Part shown: piece by piece, positions 14,316 through 23,066 of the stretch
How positions within the stretch are numbered: the first letter of the stretch is position 1
Layout: each line of letters opens with the position of its first letter
Assembly (NCBI GenBank): GCA_041752735.1
Contig: JBGSVW010000006.1
Location: 30,399 to 94,398, forward strand
Direction of reading: 5' to 3'
Length of the DNA stretch: 64,000 nt
Origin: Anaerovoracaceae bacterium
Lineage (GTDB): Bacteria > Bacillota > Clostridia > Peptostreptococcales > Anaerovoracaceae
Program-made: the position numbers and the translations under genes
Notes under the pieces: generated by a model
What the model was told of the DNA's origin: nothing
Seen by the model: the letters and a program-made list of their open reading frames with translations, nothing else
The model's database searches: none

Positions 14316-15592
14316 TTTTCGTCCAGCAGCTGTCTGGCTTCCGCAGCACGGGCATGGGCTTCCAGCCCTTCTCCTCTTGCAAGAGTGGATACGATGGGCA
14401 ATATGGTTTTCACTCCTTTGGCATCCAGCTTCTGATGGGTGCATACCTTTAGGAAGGTCCCAACCCACAGTCCACCTGTATACCGAGCGGCACCCAAAGT
14501 TGGGAGTGTATGATTGGTTCCTGTGGCATAGTCTCCAAAGACTTCTGCGGTCCTTTGCCCAATAAATAGGGAACCGTAATTCCGAAGTTGCGCAGTTAAA
14601 GACGATTCTAGTTTTTCTTCAACCATAATTTCCAAATGCTCCGGCGCATAACTGTTGGCATATTCAATTGCCTCGGTCAAATCCGCTGCCAGCAGGATTT
14701 CCCCATAATCTTTCCAGGATTGAGCTGCAATGGCTCGTGTAGACAAGTCCTCCAGTTGATTCTCAACCTGTGCCAGCACCGCCTCGCCCAAAGCAAAATC
14801 TGTAGTTACCAGAATTCCCTTAGCGACTTTGTCATGCTCCGACTGGGCCAGCAAATCTGCTGCGATAATTCTTGGATTGGCTGTGCCGTCTGCGATGACC
14901 AGCACTTCGCTGGGTCCGGCGAGAAAGTCAATGCCAATCTGGCCGAAACACTGCCTTTTTGCCTCCGTAACATAACTATTGCCCGGCCCCACAATCAGGT
15001 CCACTGGTTTGATGGACGCGGTGCCGTATGTGGCTGCGGCAACGGCTTGTGCGCCGCCGACCACATAAATTTCATCCATTCCCGCCATATTCATGGCCAC
15101 AAGGGTTTTTGGGTGAATGTTGGGCGTTCCTTTCATAGCCGGAGAGCATCCGATGACACGTGGCACCCCGGCAACCTTTGCCGGAATTCCCAACATCAAG
15201 GCGGTGGAATAGAGGGGGTAGCTTCCTCCTGGCACGTAACAGCAACACCCGTCAACGGGAATAACTCGGTGTCCTAAGGTAATACCCGGCATGGGCGTAA
15301 CCCCTTCCAATGATGTGAACAATGTCTTTTGCGCTTGGGCAAATGCTCGGATATTGGCTGCGGCCTGCTCCATTTTTTTAATGTCTGAGGCTTCCACTTG
15401 TTGATATGCATCTGCGATTTCCTGATCACTGACCCGAAGGGATTCCCTATGGCACTGATCAAAATCCGAATTATATGTGCGCAGTGCCTGGTCTCCCCGA
15501 GCGCTGACTTCTTCGATGATGTTTGCAACCCGTCCGGCCAACTCAGCCGAGTCTGCCAAGGAACGGGGCATTGCTTGTTTCATGGTTTTCAT
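14312..15592 (-). CDS. hisD: histidinol dehydrogenase
   Basis: It is a full-length 426-aa match to the HisD pattern (PGGSYPLYSTALM, QSEHD, GDYATGTNHTLPT). Confidence 0.92.
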   Translation of the reverse strand: MKTMKQAMPRSLADSAELAGRVANIIEEVSARGDQALRTYNSDFDQCHRESLRVSDQEIADAYQQVEASDIKKMEQAAANIRAFAQAQKTLFTSLEGVTPMPGITLGHRVIPVDGCCCYVPGGSYPLYSTALMLGIPAKVAGVPRVIGCSPAMKGTPNIHPKTLVAMNMAGMDEIYVVGGAQAVAAATYGTASIKPVDLIVGPGNSYVTEAKRQCFGQIGIDFLAGPSEVLVIADGTANPRIIAADLLAQSEHDKVAKGILVTTDFALGEAVLAQVENQLEDLSTRAIAAQSWKDYGEILLAADLTEAIEYANSYAPEHLEIMVEEKLESSLTAQLRNYGSLFIGQRTAEVFGDYATGTNHTLPTLGAARYTGGLWVGTFLKVCTHQKLDAKGVKTILPIVSTLARGEGLEAHARAAEARQLLDEK

Positions 15593-15635
15593 GCTTGCTA
15601 CCTACTCTTTTCTTTAATGGTGGATGTTATGCTTT

Positions 15636-15665
15636 ATTGTAATTGGCAAGGCCTTCCTTTGTCAA
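15636..15665 (-). promoter_or_regulatory. sigma-A promoter of hisD
   Basis: On the minus strand, TTGACA (15665..15660) is followed by an 18-nt spacer and TACAAT (15641..15636). Confidence 0.55.
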
Positions 15666-15728
15666 TGAAAACAGGCCGTCGCAGGCAGCATCAGACAGGA
15701 TTGACTGCAAAATCCATCTGCGTTTTCC

Positions 15729-15757
15729 TTGACTTCACGTTTTCCCAAAGATATACT
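15729..15757 (+). promoter_or_regulatory. sigma-A promoter directly abutting the mntP start codon
   Basis: TTGACT (15729-15734) is followed by a 17-nt spacer and TATACT (15752-15757). The ATG is at 15764. Confidence 0.45.
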
Positions 15758-15763
15758 CTTTTC

Positions 15764-16330
15764 ATGAGTTTATTAGAATTACTGCTGGTAGCAGTCGGTC
15801 TCTCCATGGATGCCTTCGCCGTGGCCATATGCAAGGGCCTTTCCATACAACAAGAACATCAGAAGCGATCTGCCTCACAATCCATTTATACCGGTTTGTG
15901 GTTTGGCATATTCCAAGGTGCAATGCCTCTCATTGGTTACTTTGTCGGGGCCAAATTCAGCACATTGGTCAGCGGCTTCGACCACTGGATTGTTTTTCTG
16001 CTCTTGCTCCTCATTGGAGGCAAGATGATTAAGGAGTCCCGGGAAGCGGATTCATGTCCCAACCCATCATTCAAGCCTATGACCATGCTGCCTTTGGCCG
16101 TGGCAACTAGTATTGACGCGTTGGCTGTGGGGGTCTCGTTCGCTTTCCTAAAGGTTAACATTGTTGAAGCTTCCTCCATCATTGCGGCAACCACCTTTCT
16201 CTTGTCGGCAATCGGCGTCCAGGTGGGCTGTTTTTTCGGCACCCGATTCAAATCCAGGGCAGAATTGGCGGGTGGTTTGGTCTTGATTGCCATCGGCACC
16301 AAAATTCTTATAGAGCATCTTCTGGGTTAG
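15764..16330 (+). CDS. mntP: manganese efflux pump MntP
   Basis: Matches are MSLLELLLVAVGLSMDAFAVAI and the second repeat LAVATSIDALAVGVSF. The 15398 start in the track is an antisense-derived extension. Confidence 0.85.
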   Translation: MSLLELLLVAVGLSMDAFAVAICKGLSIQQEHQKRSASQSIYTGLWFGIFQGAMPLIGYFVGAKFSTLVSGFDHWIVFLLLLLIGGKMIKESREADSCPNPSFKPMTMLPLAVATSIDALAVGVSFAFLKVNIVEASSIIAATTFLLSAIGVQVGCFFGTRFKSRAELAGGLVLIAIGTKILIEHLLG

Positions 16331-16346
16331 TATGAATAATCTACCC

Positions 16347-16375
16347 TTTACAGAATCGGTTTAACGTGGTAAACT
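16347..16375 (+). promoter_or_regulatory. promoter of the aro operon leader
   Basis: TTTACA (16347-16352) is followed by a 17-nt spacer ending in TGG and then TAAACT (16370-16375). This fits an extended -10 of the TGn type. Confidence 0.5.
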
Positions 16376-16407
16376 CTAACAAAGACAAAACGAAAGGAAC
16401 TAGTCCA

Positions 16408-16488
16408 TTGAAACATTCAGCAGTGGTAGCAAAATACTTTTATTACTACTTTACCTACGGTAAGGTGTATTTTGCTGCTGAGAGATAA
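16408..16488 (+). CDS. Tyr/Phe-rich leader peptide of the aro operon attenuator
   Basis: A TTG start lies 9 nt after AAAGGA. The peptide is MKHSAVVAKYFYYYFTYGKVYFAAER, with 6 Tyr and 3 Phe within 13 residues. It is too short for the ORF track. Confidence 0.65.
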   Translation: MKHSAVVAKYFYYYFTYGKVYFAAER

Positions 16489-16518
16489 CTTTCCTTTTGG
16501 AAATCACTCGAAACCTTT

Positions 16519-16553
16519 CTCCACAGGCAAAATATACCTGTGGAGTTTTTTTT
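16519..16553 (+). terminator. attenuator terminator upstream of aroF
   Basis: CTCCACAGG-caaaatata-CCTGTGGAG is followed by T8, and it ends 65 nt upstream of the aroF ATG. Confidence 0.8.
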
Positions 16554-16617
16554 ACCCCAAAGGTAATCTGGCCGGGGGTAAATCAGGAATCATCGTAGAA
16601 AAGCGGAGGAACACCCA

Positions 16618-17634
16618 ATGATTATCGTATTAAAAGAAAATCCGGAACAAAAACAGTTGGACAACCTGGTGGCATGGCTCAAAAGTATGGACATGGAGAT
16701 CCATTACAGTCAATACGGCACCACCACGATTATGGGGATTATCGGGGAGACAGCCATGGTGGACACAGAGCTGATTGAAGCTTTGGATATTGTGGAAAGC
16801 GTCAAACGGATTACTGAACCCTACAAAAACGCCAACCGGAAATTTCACCCCAAAGACACCATCATTGATATTGGTCCGGTTAAGCTGGGGGGCGGCCATT
16901 TTGCTGTCATCGCCGGTCCTTGCTCCATCGAATCCATGAATCAGGTTTGCTCCATTGCGGAAGAAGTCAAAGCAGCTGGTGCCCTATTATACAGAGGTGG
17001 TGCATTCAAACCGCGGACCTCTCCCTATGCCTTCCAGGGCATGCGTGAAACCGGTATTGAATTCTTATTGGAAGCCAAGCGACGTTCCGGGCTACCGGTG
17101 GTCACGGAAGTTATGGACGTGTCCCACCTGCCCCTCTTTGAGGACGTGGATGTGATTCAGGTAGGCGCAAGAAATATGCAAAACTTCGAGCTACTCAAGG
17201 AGCTGGGCAAGTTGGATAAACCGATTCTCTTGAAACGTGGGCTTTCCAGCACCATCAGCGAATTTCTCATGAGCGCCGAGTACATCATGGCCGGCGGAAA
17301 CCATAAGGTCATCCTATGCGAACGAGGCATCCGAACCTTTGAAACCGCCATGCGCAATACCTTGGACTTGTCCTGTATTCCCTTGATTAAAAGTCTTTCC
17401 CATCTGCCCATCATTGTGGACCCCAGCCATGCCACAGGCATTGCTTCCCTGGTGAAGCCCATGTCCATGGCCGCTGTAGCGGCAGGCGCGGATGGTCTGA
17501 TGATCGAGGTGCACAACGACCCGGTTCACGCACTCTGCGACGGAGCTCAGTCATTGACTCCGGCCGCTTTTCAGGATGTGATGAACGCTGTGATGCAGAT
17601 TTTGCCACTGGCATATAAAGGAGAAACAAAATGA
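16618..17634 (+). CDS. aroF: 3-deoxy-7-phosphoheptulonate (DAHP) synthase, type I-beta with N-terminal ferredoxin-like regulatory domain
   Basis: At 338 aa it has the Thermotoga-type architecture. After a roughly 70-aa N-terminal extension it carries GPCSIES, KPRTSPY and DPSHATG motifs. Confidence 0.88.
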   Translation: MIIVLKENPEQKQLDNLVAWLKSMDMEIHYSQYGTTTIMGIIGETAMVDTELIEALDIVESVKRITEPYKNANRKFHPKDTIIDIGPVKLGGGHFAVIAGPCSIESMNQVCSIAEEVKAAGALLYRGGAFKPRTSPYAFQGMRETGIEFLLEAKRRSGLPVVTEVMDVSHLPLFEDVDVIQVGARNMQNFELLKELGKLDKPILLKRGLSSTISEFLMSAEYIMAGGNHKVILCERGIRTFETAMRNTLDLSCIPLIKSLSHLPIIVDPSHATGIASLVKPMSMAAVAAGADGLMIEVHNDPVHALCDGAQSLTPAAFQDVMNAVMQILPLAYKGETK

Positions 17635-18470
17635 TAGGAGTCATCGGACTGGGGCTGGTCGGCGGATCCATGGCCAAAGCTCTGAATCAAAATACGGATC
17701 ATACGGTTTACGGATATGACATCAATGAAACCATCAGCCAAAAGGCCAAACTGGTCAACGCCATTGAAGATGTGCTGACTGATGAAATGCTACCCGAGTG
17801 CGACGTAGTGGTAGTTGCCTTGTATCCGGAAGCAACCATTGAATATGTCAAGTCCCATGCGGGTCTCTTCAAGAAAGGATCCATTGTATTAGACTGCTGC
17901 GGCGTCAAGGAAGTAGTATGTTCAGCATTGGAACCCATCGCCCGGGAAAATGGATTTGTCTTTATGGGCGGTCATCCCATGGCAGGCATCGAACACTCCG
18001 GATTTGAGTATTCCAAGAAAGCTTTGTTTGACAAGGCTTCAATGATTCTTGTGCCTGCAAAGGATACCCGGATTGAGGACATCGAATTGATTCGAAACCT
18101 TTGCAAAGCAATTGGCTTCACCATGATTCAGATGTCCACTCCAAAGGAACACGACCGGATGATCGCCTTCACATCCCAACTTCCCCATGTAATCTCCGGT
18201 GCTTACATCCGCAGCGATGCCGCAAAAGGTCATCAGGGGTATTCCGCCGGTAGTTATTGGGATATGTCCCGTGTTGCAAAGCTCAACGAAGATATGTGGA
18301 CCGAATTGTTTATGGACAATCCCGAATTTCTGGTCAATGAGCTTTCGGCTATGGCCAAACGCCTAACCGAGTACAGTGATGCCATTGCCCGTGGAGATCA
18401 AGAGACATTGCGGCAGCTTCTTCGAGATGGTAGAATAAAGAAAGAGACCATTGATAAAGAATTTTTCTAA
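17631..18470 (+). CDS. tyrA: prephenate dehydrogenase
   Basis: It has an IGVIGLGLVGGSMA Rossmann fold and GGHPMAG. It has an ATGA overlap with aroF. Confidence 0.88.
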   Translation: MIGVIGLGLVGGSMAKALNQNTDHTVYGYDINETISQKAKLVNAIEDVLTDEMLPECDVVVVALYPEATIEYVKSHAGLFKKGSIVLDCCGVKEVVCSALEPIARENGFVFMGGHPMAGIEHSGFEYSKKALFDKASMILVPAKDTRIEDIELIRNLCKAIGFTMIQMSTPKEHDRMIAFTSQLPHVISGAYIRSDAAKGHQGYSAGSYWDMSRVAKLNEDMWTELFMDNPEFLVNELSAMAKRLTEYSDAIARGDQETLRQLLRDGRIKKETIDKEFF

Positions 18471-18510
18471 ACACGTAATGACATTTCACGGTATTGCAAA
18501 GGAGAAAACA

Positions 18511-19596
18511 ATGATTCCTCTGACAATCAATACACATCAACCCTATAAAGTGATTTCGGAACCCGGTGCTTTGACCCAATTGGGCACCATATGTGCCGAT
18601 ATTTTGAAACCCTGCAAAATATGTGTTGTCACAGAAGACAACGTGGATATTCTTTATTCCGATACTGTAACGGGCTCATTGGAAAAAGCCGGATTTTGCG
18701 TACACAAAATTGTATTCTCTCCCGGCGAACACACAAAGAGTCTGGTTTCCGTCGGTTTACTGTTGGATTTTCTTTCAGAAAAAGAATTCACCAGAACCGA
18801 TGTGGTGATTGCCCTGGGTGGCGGTGTCATGGGGGACCTCTCCGGGTTCGCTGCATCCGTTTATCTCCGAGGAATCCGATATATTCAAGTCCCAACCACC
18901 TTTCTGGCGGCTGTTGACTCTTCTGTTGGCGGAAAAACCGGAGTCAATCTGGCCTCCGGCAAAAATTTAGCAGGCACCTTCTGGCAACCAACTCTAGTAG
19001 TCTTTGATCCTATGACAATGGACACCCTGGCGGAGTCAATGATTTTGGACGGCTTGGCAGAAACCATAAAATGTGGCATGATAGCGGATAAAAATCTGTT
19101 GGACTTTATAAAAGACACACCTTGGAATGGGTTGCCCACCGACAAAGCACTTTACGATTTTGTCCAGCGATGTGCCATCGGTGCCATTGGTGTCAAGCAA
19201 AAGCTGGTAGAAGAAGACGAAAAAGATTTGGCACAGCGCCAATTATTGAATTTCGGTCACACCATTGGACACGCCATTGAGCTATCCAGTAGATATACTG
19301 TTTCCCACGGCCAGGCTGTAGCAAAAGGAATGGTCATCGTCACCCGGGCAGCAATGATCAAAGGGTGGACCAAAGAAGACTGTCTAACTCCTTTGCTAAA
19401 TGCCTTGGATAAGTTTGGGTTTTTATTGGATGTGCCATACACTGCCGAAAGCCTGGCAGAGATTGCCCTTCGGGACAAAAAAAGAAAAGGCAAGACCATC
19501 AATCTGGTAATCCCAATCCGTCAGGGAGAAGGCGTCTTGAAGCCCATTGATGTTGACGACTTAAGTGACTTTATAGAAACGGGGTTACAACCATGA
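18511..19596 (+). CDS. aroB: 3-dehydroquinate synthase
   Basis: Matches are ALGGGVMGDLSGFAAS, VPTTFLAAVDSSVGGKTGVN and NFGHTIGHAIE. The start is the Met after AAGGAG. Confidence 0.9.
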   Translation: MIPLTINTHQPYKVISEPGALTQLGTICADILKPCKICVVTEDNVDILYSDTVTGSLEKAGFCVHKIVFSPGEHTKSLVSVGLLLDFLSEKEFTRTDVVIALGGGVMGDLSGFAASVYLRGIRYIQVPTTFLAAVDSSVGGKTGVNLASGKNLAGTFWQPTLVVFDPMTMDTLAESMILDGLAETIKCGMIADKNLLDFIKDTPWNGLPTDKALYDFVQRCAIGAIGVKQKLVEEDEKDLAQRQLLNFGHTIGHAIELSSRYTVSHGQAVAKGMVIVTRAAMIKGWTKEDCLTPLLNALDKFGFLLDVPYTAESLAEIALRDKKRKGKTINLVIPIRQGEGVLKPIDVDDLSDFIETGLQP

Positions 19597-20780
19597 AAAT
19601 GATCATACAACCCGGACCCTTAAGTGGAACTTTATCCGCCATCCCTTCCAAGTCCCACGGGCATCGACTCTTGATTGCTGCTGCATTGTCCAGCCCACAA
19701 GGGCAGGTACAGCTCACCGAAACTTCTGAGGATCTTGAAGCCACTCGCACATGCCTGTCTGCTTTGCATGAAAGCGATCCAGTTCTCCCATGTAGGGAAA
19801 GCGGGTCCACCCTTCGGTTTCTTTTGCCTGTCGCCATGGCACATCAATCTCATGTCAGATTCCTGGGGGAAGGCAGGCTCTTGAAACGGCCCCTTTCTCC
19901 TCTCAAAGAAGAGATGGAGCGACATGGGTGTCGTTTTCATATGGGTAAGGGTGAGCTGGAGGTCAAAGGATTGCTCCAAAGCGGCTCTTACCATTTACGA
20001 GGAGACATCAGCTCACAGTATGTCACAGGTCTTTTATTTGCGCTCCCTTTGCTGGCAGGAGATAGTGAAATACTCCTTACTACCCCTTTGGAATCCTGTG
20101 GTTATGTAGATATGACCGTGCAAGTACTGACGGATGCAGGGATTCAAGTGAACATATCAACACAGGAAGGAACATTCGGGCCTCATCGTGAGGCACTTCT
20201 CAAATACAATATCCCAGGGGGGCAGCATTACCAGAGTCCCGAGTTGGCGATTCCCGAAGGCGACTGGTCCAACGGCGCCTTTTGGCTAGCTGCCAATTAT
20301 GTGGGTTTTGGCAATCGGGTTACCTGCAACGGGCTTTCTGAAGATTCCCTGCAAGGCGACCGGATTATCTCAGACTTGCTCCGTGATTTCCCCAATGTCA
20401 TCGATGGTTCCCAGATTCCAGACTTGATTCCCATCCTTGCCGTTGTGGCATCGGTGCGACCGGGAATCACCACCATCAAACATGCGGAGCGGCTCCGCTT
20501 GAAAGAAAGCGACCGATTGGAAACCACAGTCCGACTCATCCGCGATCTAGGTGGAGATGCGGAGGAGTTACCTGACGGGATGGTCATCCGAGGAAGGCCT
20601 CTGCTTCGAGGCGGTACAGTGGACGGATGTGGAGATCATCGAATCGTTATGTCTGCTGCCATTGCATCTACCGTCTGCACCGAGCCCGTCATCATAACCG
20701 GTGCTGAAGCCGTCAATAAGTCCTATCCCGGTTTTTTCCGGGATTTCAAAGGGTTGGGAGGGAAAATCAATGAAATCTAG
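19593..20780 (+). CDS. aroA: 3-phosphoshikimate 1-carboxyvinyltransferase (EPSP synthase)
   Basis: Matches are PSKSHGHR, SSQYVTGLLFALPL, LKESDR and DHRIVMSAAIA. Confidence 0.88.
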   Translation: MKMIIQPGPLSGTLSAIPSKSHGHRLLIAAALSSPQGQVQLTETSEDLEATRTCLSALHESDPVLPCRESGSTLRFLLPVAMAHQSHVRFLGEGRLLKRPLSPLKEEMERHGCRFHMGKGELEVKGLLQSGSYHLRGDISSQYVTGLLFALPLLAGDSEILLTTPLESCGYVDMTVQVLTDAGIQVNISTQEGTFGPHREALLKYNIPGGQHYQSPELAIPEGDWSNGAFWLAANYVGFGNRVTCNGLSEDSLQGDRIISDLLRDFPNVIDGSQIPDLIPILAVVASVRPGITTIKHAERLRLKESDRLETTVRLIRDLGGDAEELPDGMVIRGRPLLRGGTVDGCGDHRIVMSAAIASTVCTEPVIITGAEAVNKSYPGFFRDFKGLGGKINEI

Positions 20781-21834
20781 CTTTGGGAAAAATTGCAAGG
20801 TCACCATCTTTGGTGGCTCCCATGAAGATCGGATTGGTGTTACCTTGGAAGGATTTCCTGAAGGGTTTACCCCTGATTTTGAAAAACTTCAGCAATTCAT
20901 GAACCGCAGGGCACCGGGGAACAGCCCCTTTTCCACCCCACGCAAAGAAGCGGACTTGGTGGAATTGGAATCCTCAAGCCCTCTGACGATATTCATACGG
21001 AACACCAATGTCCATTCCGGAGACTATGTAAAGTTACGACAAGTGCCACGACCCGGTCATGCGGATTTTACTGCACAGATTAAATATGGTGACTCTATCA
21101 ACATGGCAGGTGGCGGTCCCTTTTCCGGAAGAATGACCGCACCCCTTTGTATTGCCGGCGGACTAGCCATGCAGATTCTGGCACAATACGGCATCCGCGT
21201 GGGCGCTCATATTTCTTCCATTGCAGACAAACAGGATACGTACTTTAATCCCACTAACATTCCGGAAGCCTTGCTAAAGTCCTTAGGTGAATCGAAATTT
21301 CCGGTAATTTCAACAGAAGCCGGTGAAGAAATGCAGCATATAATATTGAATGCTAAAATCAGTGGCGATTCTGTAGGTGGCATTGTGGAAGCCTGTGCCG
21401 TCGGGGTCCCTGCCGGACTAGGCGGTGCGATGTTTGATGGGGTTGAAAGTGTTCTTTCCCCTATTCTCTTCGGAATCCCTGGCGTCAAGGGCGTCGAATT
21501 CGGAACCGGGTTTGCCGCCAGCATGTTACATGGTTCTGAAAATAATGACCCATTTATTGTAGAAAACTACAAGGTACGTACTGTGACAAACCATCACGGG
21601 GGCATTCTGGGAGGAATCACCTCTGGCATGCCTCTGGTATTGCGGGTTGCATTCAAGCCAACTCCTTCCATTGCCATGGAACAACAGTCAGTGAACTTAG
21701 CCACCCTTGAGGCTGAAACGCTTCAGGTGACCGGCCGTCATGATCCCTGCATTGTCCTGCGTGCAGTCCCGGTGGTGGAAGCTGCCATTGCCATTGGGCT
21801 TCTGGATTTGCTCATGGAAAGGACTAACCCATGA
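20770..21834 (+). CDS. aroC: chorismate synthase
   Basis: Matches are FGGSHEDRIGVTLEG, RPGHADF, GGGPFSGR and GGILGGITSG. The start overlaps the aroA end by 11 nt. Confidence 0.9.
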   Translation: MKSSFGKNCKVTIFGGSHEDRIGVTLEGFPEGFTPDFEKLQQFMNRRAPGNSPFSTPRKEADLVELESSSPLTIFIRNTNVHSGDYVKLRQVPRPGHADFTAQIKYGDSINMAGGGPFSGRMTAPLCIAGGLAMQILAQYGIRVGAHISSIADKQDTYFNPTNIPEALLKSLGESKFPVISTEAGEEMQHIILNAKISGDSVGGIVEACAVGVPAGLGGAMFDGVESVLSPILFGIPGVKGVEFGTGFAASMLHGSENNDPFIVENYKVRTVTNHHGGILGGITSGMPLVLRVAFKPTPSIAMEQQSVNLATLEAETLQVTGRHDPCIVLRAVPVVEAAIAIGLLDLLMERTNP

Positions 21835-23066
21835 AATACGGTTTGATTGGCGAACATCTTTCCCATAGTTATTCCAAGCTTATCCACGAAAAATTAGGGC
21901 TTTACCCCTATGATTTATTCCCTATGCCTCCGGAACAGCTCGATTCTCTCTTAGCCGGTCGCAGCTTCGCCGGTTTGAATGTCACCATTCCGTACAAAAC
22001 CATAGTTGGGAAATATTGCGATATCATCGACGCGGAAGCGAAGGCAATCGGCTCCATCAACACATTGTACTTCAAGGATAATACTCTACATGGCGCCAAT
22101 ACGGACTATCACGGATTGTCCTATGCGGCCAACCGGGCAGGTATTTCTTTTAAAGGCAAAAAAGTTCTGATTCTAGGCGGTGGCGGAACTAGCCGAACGG
22201 CAAGAACGCTATGCCACGATTCAGGCGCTGCTGAAATCGTTGTGGCGGAACGTAATCCAGATATTATTGATGGGGTGAAGTCCGTGGCATATTCTAATCT
22301 TCCCCACGATGCTGAAATCATTGTCAACACCACGCCTGTTGGCATGTTTCCCGACAACATAAAAGCCCTCATCCAGCTTACCGACTTTCCCAAATGCATC
22401 GGCGTGCTGGACGTGATTTATAACCCGTTTTCTACCAAGCTTGTCATGGAAGCTCGAGAAATGGGAATTCCGTGCTCGGGCGGATTGCCCATGCTGGTTG
22501 CCCAGGCGACACGTGCTGCCGAGTTTTTCACTGGCCGAACCGGACTGCAAAAGGAGACGGAGCGAATCATCTCTGAATTGGAAACCGAGCTTCGTAATGT
22601 AGTCCTGATCGGAATGCCTGGCAGCGGTAAAAGCACCTTCGGAAAGAAGTTGGCAAAGAAATTGAACAGAACCTTTGTAGATCTTGACAAAGAAATAGTC
22701 AAACTGGCTGGCAAATCCATCCCCGAAATTTTTTTGCAAGATGGAGAACCCCACTTTCGATCACTCGAAACACAGATTGCCTTAGAATTTGGTAAACAGA
22801 ACAGCCTGGTAATTTCCACAGGCGGCGGGATTCTGCTGGATTCGGTCAATGCCCTGGCGCTAAAGCAAAACGGCAAATTGATTTTCATAGACCGACCTAT
22901 CGCCCAATTGGAGACGGATGGGCGGCCTTTGTCTACAAATCAGGCAGCGCTGGCTGACATGGAAAGAATCCGGAAACCCCTTTATGCGAAATATCAGGAT
23001 GCTACTTTAGTGAACCATGGATCTTTTATCCAGGTGTTATTAGAATTGGAAAAGCTATCAACATAA
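21831..23066 (+). CDS. aroE-aroK: fused shikimate dehydrogenase (AroE) / shikimate kinase (AroK)
   Basis: The N-terminal half matches AroE (GLIGEHLSHSYSKLIH, NVTIPYK, NTDYHG, GGGGTSR). The C-terminal half matches AroK (LIGMPGSGKSTFGKKLAKKLNRTFVDLD, STGGG). Confidence 0.88.
   Translation: MKYGLIGEHLSHSYSKLIHEKLGLYPYDLFPMPPEQLDSLLAGRSFAGLNVTIPYKTIVGKYCDIIDAEAKAIGSINTLYFKDNTLHGANTDYHGLSYAANRAGISFKGKKVLILGGGGTSRTARTLCHDSGAAEIVVAERNPDIIDGVKSVAYSNLPHDAEIIVNTTPVGMFPDNIKALIQLTDFPKCIGVLDVIYNPFSTKLVMEAREMGIPCSGGLPMLVAQATRAAEFFTGRTGLQKETERIISELETELRNVVLIGMPGSGKSTFGKKLAKKLNRTFVDLDKEIVKLAGKSIPEIFLQDGEPHFRSLETQIALEFGKQNSLVISTGGGILLDSVNALALKQNGKLIFIDRPIAQLETDGRPLSTNQAALADMERIRKPLYAKYQDATLVNHGSFIQVLLELEKLST

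Follow-up and report, generated by a model that had tools for sequence, protein, structure and literature searches.

Ahead of the aroF-tyrA-aroB-aroA-aroC-aroE/K operon of aromatic amino-acid synthesis, in a 64-kb stretch of clostridial DNA (the window, to whose positions all coordinates below refer), lies a leader that very probably acts as a ribosome-mediated, or leader-peptide, attenuator, setting expression of the operon by the supply of charged tRNA-Tyr and tRNA-Phe (Tyr, tyrosine; Phe, phenylalanine). Leader, promoter and operon are all on the + strand, and the leader contains the parts by which such attenuators are recognized: a short open reading frame (ORF) with a ribosome-binding site (RBS) and start codon, a cluster of cognate codons, and a terminator before the first gene, together with an antiterminator that excludes this terminator and an anti-antiterminator containing the codons, in a geometry that holds in silico. 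A preliminary description, made from the sequence alone, had already proposed a trp/phe-type mechanism for the site, and the proposal is now supported by ORFs conserved among relatives, by pairings that covary, and by folding calculations in which the ribosome is represented as a mask. That ribosomes stall in the leader, that the leader responds to Phe and Tyr, and how ribosome and polymerase are timed relative to each other is what we infer.

The leader ORF and its Shine-Dalgarno (SD) sequence (Table 1) were correctly delimited at the outset, with TTG at 16408, TAA ending at 16488 and AAAGGA as the SD; likewise, 9 of the 13 residues of YFYYYFTYGKVYF within the leader peptide are indeed Tyr or Phe. 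In alignments, the TTG lines up with the ATG of related leaders, and the AAAGGA is kept in two of them (L001 and L002). The frame is also open upstream as far as a GTG at 16366, which would sit 5' of the likely transcript start. A start near 16382 fits the candidate promoter, a sigma-70-like site that matches the consensus at 9 of 12 positions and has the TG extension in addition (consensus scan), and that is unchanged in L001, the relative whose AroF is 98% identical. When all 64 kb, including the region upstream of hisD, were searched for further small ORFs that carry an amino-acid run and have a T-run behind them, no convincing second leader peptide was found. The window's leader peptide is absent from the public protein collection, whereas three of the five relatives' leader peptides looked up are present there, but unnamed.

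Past the ORF, the terminator with its T8 at 16519-16553, as first described, folds at -15.0 kcal/mol (z = -5.9). The element competing with it required some revision. Region 2 of the leader had been thought to pair with 16524-16535, and while this alternative pairing is real, it is longer than that: it is a helix of 14 bp that joins 16463-16476 to 16526-16539, at -27.1 kcal/mol (z = -5.6) with the 3' arm of the terminator removed. Region 2 lies within the ORF and ends 6 nt short of the stop codon, while region 3, its partner, begins 2 nt before the end of the terminator's 5' arm, spans the entire loop and extends 3 nt into the 3' arm. As a whole, the leader (16382-16560) reaches -50.5 kcal/mol (z = -4.7), a value equalled by none of 200 shuffles. 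Its unconstrained minimum free energy (MFE) fold consists of an outer 1:2 helix, an inner hairpin at 16447-16467 (hairpin H) and the terminator, and the pairing of region 1 with region 2 proposed earlier (16418-16437 with 16467-16480) appears in it with 12 pairs. A small hairpin, UUUCC-UUUU-GGAAA, is also found at 16490-16503, between the leader stop and the terminator; it is kept in L001 and falls in the internal loop of the antiterminator fold.

The effect of a ribosome on this equilibrium was modelled by blocking 30 nt and refolding 16382-16556. With the A site at 16435, 16441 or 16447 (codons 10-14), all 14 antiterminator pairs form and none of the 9 terminator pairs, while at 16450 or later the antiterminator has no pairs and the terminator 8-9 of its 9. 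A ribosome at the stop codon and the complete lack of a ribosome both give 0 antiterminator pairs and 8 of 9 terminator pairs. The first of these two outcomes bears out the earlier expectation that a ribosome reaching the stop codon would allow termination. Since only stalls at the first five codons of the run (16435-16449) yield the antiterminator under the mask, these are taken to be the sensing codons. A stall anywhere over 16435-16473 had been expected to favor antitermination; the mask folds agree with this for A sites at 16435-16447 and go the other way at 16468-16473, which lies inside region 2 and gives the terminator. The last Tyr-Phe pair of codons, at 16468-16473, would be a by-product of the region 2 sequence UUUGCUGC, and no readthrough would be expected from a stall there.

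Table 1. Features of the leader and its operon, by position in the window
Feature	Position	Strand	Details
Candidate promoter	16347-16375	+	-35 TTTACA 16347-16352; 17-nt spacer; TG-extended -10 TAAACT 16370-16375
SD of leader ORF	16393-16398	+	AAAGGA, 9 nt ahead of TTG
Leader ORF	16408-16488	+	26 codons: TTG 16408-16410, then 25 codons to TAA 16486-16488; product MKHSAVVAKYFYYYFTYGKVYFAAER
Outer-helix 5' strand (region 1 of the preliminary description)	16418-16437	+	partner 16467-16480; 12 pairs in unconstrained MFE fold
Main regulatory codon run	16435-16458	+	TAC TTT TAT TAC TAC TTT ACC TAC (Y F Y Y Y F T Y)
Hairpin H	16447-16467	+	UACUUUACC-UAC-GGUAAGGUG; -7.7 kcal/mol; followed by UAUUUUG
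Region 2	16463-16480	+	antiterminator 5' strand 16463-16476; outer-helix 3' strand 16467-16480
Intrinsic terminator	16519-16553	+	CTCCACAGG 16519-16527; 9-nt loop; CCTGTGGAG 16537-16545; T8 16546-16553
Region 3 (antiterminator 3' strand)	16526-16539	+	GGCAAAAUAUACCU; from folds
Regulated operon	16618-23066	+	Pfam matches
aroF	16618-17634	+	3-deoxy-D-arabino-heptulosonate 7-phosphate (DAHP) synthase with N-terminal ferredoxin-like domain DAHP_snth_FXD
tyrA	17631-18470	+	Pfam
aroB	18451-19596	+	Pfam
aroA	19593-20780	+	Pfam
aroC	20701-21834	+	Pfam
aroE-aroK fusion	21831-23066	+	shikimate dehydrogenase and shikimate kinase domains; 411 aa; last gene of operon

In the mechanism proposed on this basis, transcription would begin at about 16382 and the leader ORF would be translated while RNA polymerase is still within the leader. 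When Tyr or Phe is scarce, the ribosome would stall at 16435-16449 and cover the 5' strands of both the outer helix and hairpin H. Region 2 (16463-16476), left uncovered, would then be able to pair with 16526-16539, so that no terminator forms and the operon is transcribed. When both amino acids are plentiful, the ribosome would proceed to the TAA at 16486-16488 and cover region 2, and the terminator would form and stop transcription at about 16553. In the absence of translation, the outer helix and hairpin H would together sequester region 2, with termination again the predicted outcome. Finally, hairpin H and the U-tract behind it may pause the polymerase until the ribosome arrives.

Four points weigh against this interpretation. 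The leader start is TTG where relatives have ATG, although the SD and the alignment with their ATG are retained. The mask folds are equilibrium calculations with an assumed 30-nt footprint, from which the kinetics are extrapolated. According to PMC11802643, attenuation at the aroR leader of Corynebacterium glutamicum is unaffected by Tyr supply, and dual sensing of Phe and Tyr is therefore not to be assumed. Finally, in Bacillus subtilis the lead ribosome is left behind by the polymerase (Johnson et al. 2020, cited in PMC9226507), a condition under which ribosome-mediated attenuation should be hard; if such a runaway polymerase were at work in Clostridia, the leader would demand a pause, itself only inferred. 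Conversely, the conservation of the attenuator family across many Clostridia argues that ribosome and polymerase are in step there, at least within leaders.

This conservation was established in a survey of 80 genome loci with the closest AroF proteins (62-98% identity), nearly all from Clostridia and including Oscillospiraceae, Lachnospiraceae, Christensenellaceae, Eubacteriaceae, Anaerovoracaceae, Faecalibacterium, Ruminococcus and others. The closest genome, that with the 98% identical AroF, is a metagenome-assembled genome (MAG) of the Anaerovoracaceae, a family of the order Peptostreptococcales within the Clostridia. Conservation of a small aromatic ORF in homologous leaders had been put forward in advance as a check on the attenuator, and it is clearly passed: 77 loci provide 300 nt or more of upstream sequence, and 68 of these have a small ORF 5' of aroF in which at least five of eight residues are Phe or Tyr. 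By the same criterion, only one of the 77 reverse complements and 5.6% of dinucleotide shuffles score, so the arrangement exceeds chance. Elsewhere in the loci, a stricter screen for ATG-started ORFs with at least six of eight aromatic residues and a T-run within 120 nt gave only three matches in about 520 kb, counting both strands. Translation signals accompany the ORFs, with an ATG preceded by an SD in 65 of the 68 leaders (the window counted among the 68). In a test that is independent of the analyst's choice of start, an SD-like 4-mer was found before the most-upstream in-frame ATG in 46 of 65 leaders, as against 10.7% of other ATGs in the same regions.

Across the family, 18.9% of leader-peptide residues are Phe and 14.6% Tyr (33.5% together), with 0.1% tryptophan (Trp); each leader has 6-12 aromatic codons, and 65 of the 68 have at least two Phe and at least two Tyr. 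The retention of both residues, the exclusion of Trp and the presence of tyrA in the operon fit selection for the sensing of both Phe and Tyr. Among L001-L080, leader Phe codons are 82% TTT (282 TTT, 60 TTC), compared with 47% TTT in the adjacent aroF genes, while leader Tyr codons are without comparable bias.

The leader also stays with aroF. A terminator scan placed an intrinsic terminator upstream of aroF in most loci, and in all 68 leaders, the window included, one lies 14-67 nt past the leader stop, with 14-131 nt (in a single case 299 nt) separating it from aroF. The gene order aroF-tyrA-aroB-aroA is kept in most related loci, while the genes 5' of the leader fall into 59 clusters among 65 loci, with MntP, the window's own upstream neighbor, found only in L001. 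Because the upstream neighbor changes in nearly every locus, the leader is assigned to aroF. A separate pattern is seen in three MAGs labelled Spirochaetia, Spirochaetales and Treponema (L021, L030 and L047), where AroF is 65-69% identical to that of the window, and where there is neither an aromatic leader ORF nor a terminator 5' of aroF; this suggests gene transfer without the leader, or another form of control.

Compensatory changes in the alternative pairings, which the preliminary description had also named as something to look for, were sought by two routes, and on both the pairings are conserved and covary. When whole leaders were aligned with MAFFT, both the terminator and hairpin H were recovered, and 8 of the 9 aligned terminator stem pairs have compensatory changes. 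For the antiterminator, the spacer is too variable to give common columns, and covariation was therefore examined through per-locus duplex energies, each being the best pairing of the stretch 3' of the run with a segment of the locus's own terminator that goes from the 5' arm through the loop and 3 nt into the 3' arm. Against shuffled partners, the mean z of this region 2:3 duplex is -2.66, with 68% of loci below -2. Moreover, region 2 pairs with its own terminator at -18.3 kcal/mol and with those of the other 67 loci at -12.6 kcal/mol, and of the 68 loci, 39 (by rows) or 43 (by columns) place the own partner within the top 10%, against an expectation of about seven. Such a test of own against other partners can be read as an alignment-free measure of antiterminator covariation. 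In 67 of the 68 leaders, region 2 starts no more than 11 nt past the stop codon, a position that should be within reach of a ribosome terminating there.

At closer range, the window and L001 are near-identical in promoter, ORF, both switch helices and hairpin H, and the substitutions are concentrated 3' of the terminator. The two leader ORFs differ by a synonymous TAC to TAT change and by one Ala to Thr replacement. In the terminator loop, a change of U16535 to C in L001 replaces a G-U pair of the antiterminator with G-C, and the antiterminator duplex is -18.6 kcal/mol in the window and -25.3 kcal/mol in L001.

Hairpin H was not part of the preliminary description, which presented the outer 1:2 helix as the first element of the switch. 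That helix is present in the window, where the duplex has z = -2.5, while across loci it is significant only in a subtype with long leaders. In that subtype, region 2 lies within the ORF and the paired GCAGC/GCUGC segments encode the recurrent peptide motifs AAE and FAAE. By contrast, hairpin H is general: it occurs at -5 kcal/mol or better in 63 of the 68 leaders. Because the inner hairpin is general and the outer helix confined to a subtype, hairpin H is regarded as the family-wide counterpart of the classical 1:2 element, and the outer helix of the window can be viewed as an addition around it. Its 5' strand in the window consists of aromatic codons, as in 64 of the 68 leaders, and its 3' strand is shared in part with the antiterminator 5' strand. 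Across the family, 44 leaders have this 3' strand sharing at least 3 nt with region 2, and in 14 more it ends no more than 5 nt away. In an alignment of 47 sequences, the 8 pairs of hairpin H are 84% paired, compared with 69% in shuffles, and the covariation score of 0.563 (0.303 in shuffles) is reached by none of 500 shuffles; slid controls scored 0.06-0.20.

Behind hairpin H is a U-rich tract, UAUUUUG in the window, and TTT occurs within 8 nt of the hairpin in 54 of the 68 leaders. Together, hairpin and tract could form a candidate pause site for RNA polymerase or a weak first terminator. A simple terminator scan rated hairpin H with UAUUUUG (16447-16473) as terminator-like. The NusG-type pause motif TTNTTT follows the hairpin in only 16 of the 68 leaders and is absent in the window, and no claim of that kind is made. 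Hairpin H also contains, within its GGUAAGG, a UAA (16461-16463) that is invariant in a subgroup alignment of 16 sequences and that reads as a stop in the -1 frame relative to the leader ORF, directly after a slippery U-rich run. It is conceivable that this UAA might trap frameshifted ribosomes, and frameshifting has been documented in pheL of Escherichia coli (PMC3082878).

Other explanations of the same observations have to be weighed. The leader might be a ribosome-dependent attenuator of another kind, sensing general translation capacity or one amino acid, such as Phe alone. Any slowing of the ribosome within the run would yield readthrough, and PMC11802643 reports Tyr availability to be without effect on transcription from C. 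glutamicum aroR. The aromatic specificity of the run, however, is conserved despite large sequence divergence, and the composition of the peptides, with at least two Phe and at least two Tyr in 65 of the 68, Trp excluded, and tyrA within the operon, makes a sensor of this kind improbable. Still less probable is an RNA switch that is not translated and that responds to a bound protein, tRNA or small ligand, with the UAY/UUY triplets serving as a TRAP-like binding motif and the ORF being incidental. A repeat of such triplets is automatically open in one frame, and in one subgroup hairpin H (CUUUACC/GGUAAGG) is strongly conserved at the nucleotide level. Against this stand the in-frame ATG with an SD found 5-15 codons upstream in nearly all loci, far over background, and the variation in the positions and order of Phe and Tyr while aromatic richness is kept. 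The tie between stop position and region 2 in 67 of the 68 leaders is, moreover, explicable only by a translating ribosome. The window and 17 related loci also gave no Rfam match to such a switch, T-box included, and neither (G/U)AG repeats nor the T-box core motif were found.

The third explanation, for which we hold out the least hope, is that the terminator is a constitutive end of the mntP transcript or an insulator, beside which the ORF and the alternative pairings are fortuitous. A terminator scan detected none between the mntP stop (16330) and 16519, and readthrough from mntP would thus stop here. Yet the leader and terminator stand beside aroF in 68 loci in which the upstream genes form 59 unrelated clusters, MntP being upstream only in L001; the antiterminator covaries with the terminator, and the window has a promoter-like site of its own. 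A leader-peptide attenuator that would respond to Tyr and Phe is the explanation we retain.

The surroundings of the leader can be described briefly. To its 5' side lies mntP, as does hisD on the opposite strand. As listed (15398-16330), the mntP ORF overlaps hisD on the other strand, and its Pfam domain takes up residues 159-304 only, for which reasons mntP probably begins well downstream of the listed start. At the Rfam gathering score, no yybP-ykoY (manganese) riboswitch was found 5' of mntP. On the other side of the leader, the DAHP_snth_FXD domain of AroF is presumably the regulatory domain of Thermotoga-type DAHP synthases that are inhibited by Tyr and Phe. If that assumption is right, control of the enzyme and control of the transcript may sense the same two amino acids.

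A broader proposal is also tempting, although we put it forward tentatively and would not be surprised to see it fail. According to this proposal, the aroF leader typifies a large and so far undescribed family of attenuators that sense Phe and Tyr alike, which would be the default control of the shikimate operon in gut and environmental Clostridia, with hairpin H and the U-tract acting as a programmed pause that synchronizes the lead ribosome with RNA polymerase. If true, functional coupling of transcription and translation in leaders would be widespread in a major class of Firmicutes, in contrast to the "runaway transcription" of B. subtilis. The aroF leader is a natural test case for kinetic ribosome-polymerase coupling in Clostridia. 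The step concerned is the first committed one of aromatic amino-acid synthesis and many of the hosts are gut commensals, in which the leader suggests that charged tRNA-Phe and tRNA-Tyr are read by the ribosome and not by T-boxes. In many Clostridia genomes, the roughly 170 nt 5' of aroF are at present unannotated, and the peptides are uncalled or unnamed. A covariance model built from aroF leaders could join the libraries of RNA families, and the leader itself could become a Phe/Tyr-responsive part for the engineering of anaerobes.

Comparison with known regulators places the leader outside the curated families. At the gathering score, Rfam models matched one tRNA only in the whole window, and a permissive scan of 16250-16700 (E up to 10) returned only chance matches to eukaryotic or viral families. 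A scan of 17 related loci gave no match, and neither they nor the window matched Phe_leader, Trp_leader, the leu/phe leader or other curated leader families. A T-box was rejected, since RF00230 matched neither the window nor the 17 loci and 16200-16620 has no TGGNACC core. TRAP-type control was rejected as well, as there are five scattered (G/U)AG triplets with a longest chain of 1, where a series spaced by 2-3 nt is required. The T-boxes and TRAP of Bacilli serve the same physiological goal, and with the same output of terminator versus antiterminator in a 5' leader, but their sensor is the binding of uncharged tRNA or a Trp-activated protein, and the aroF leader carries signatures of neither. 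The preliminary description had called leader-peptide attenuation an unusual solution in Firmicutes; this is apt with respect to Bacillus-type models and does not apply within the clade, where such a leader is the norm among the loci examined.

The leader has the logic of pheL-pheA and trpL-trp of E. coli, which share with the window a short translated ORF in which codons for the end product form a run, a terminator, and a region 2 able to pair with region 1 or with region 3. Further points in common are a stop codon that lets the terminating ribosome mask region 2, and super-attenuation when there is no translation. In the E. coli trp leader, the 1:2 hairpin pauses the polymerase until the ribosome arrives. 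The differences are several. There is no match in sequence or structure to the Rfam leader models; the run mixes Tyr and Phe, and an extra outer helix encloses the classical 1:2 hairpin; the genes controlled are those of the common pathway (aroF to aroE/K, plus tyrA) and not of a terminal branch; and the host is a Clostridium-class Firmicute.

Classical leader-peptide attenuation has been found in Firmicutes before, including in the Peptostreptococcales, the order of the genome closest to the window. Examples are the histidine leader-peptide attenuators of Clostridioides difficile, other Peptostreptococcaceae, the Bacillus cereus group and the Erysipelotrichales (PMC9413887, PMC2965389), and the leucine-rich attenuator peptide of the ilv-leu operon of Staphylococcus aureus (PMC5794164). 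These leaders concern other amino acids and other operons, and have no sequence relationship to the aroF leader.

With regard to aroF itself, no description of the Clostridia leader family was found in Rfam or in the full-text-searched literature, and the family that precedes aroF in most related Clostridia is apparently undescribed. Two precedents do exist in other lineages. In C. glutamicum, the leader peptide aroR lies 5' of aroF, and its attenuation is relieved by Phe limitation (Neshat et al. 2014, summarized in PMC11802643; also PMC7356990). aroR resembles the present leader in having Phe and Tyr codons in a leader peptide directly 5' of the DAHP synthase gene aroF, and differs in that this actinobacterial peptide has a Phe-Tyr-Phe motif only, as against the 6-12 aromatic codons of the Clostridia leaders. 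The Clostridia leader ORF also has an SD. The attenuators of C. glutamicum are, in contrast, reportedly leaderless transcripts. On a comparison of functional descriptions only, an independent origin of the two seems likely. The other precedent is uORFC-13-1, an upstream ORF (uORF) motif with 24 representatives, reported solely from Acholeplasma and unassigned environmental sequences, that occurs exclusively 5' of aroF, and whose coding is described as "at least one phenylalanine" (Brewer et al. 2021, PMC8632094). By its description, it shares with the present leader a candidate uORF, a promoter, an RBS and start, Phe codons, an extra paired element and an adjacent terminator, in a lineage related to Firmicutes. 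The C. glutamicum aroR leader and this Acholeplasma uORF motif are the nearest precedents for the attenuator ahead of aroF in the window.

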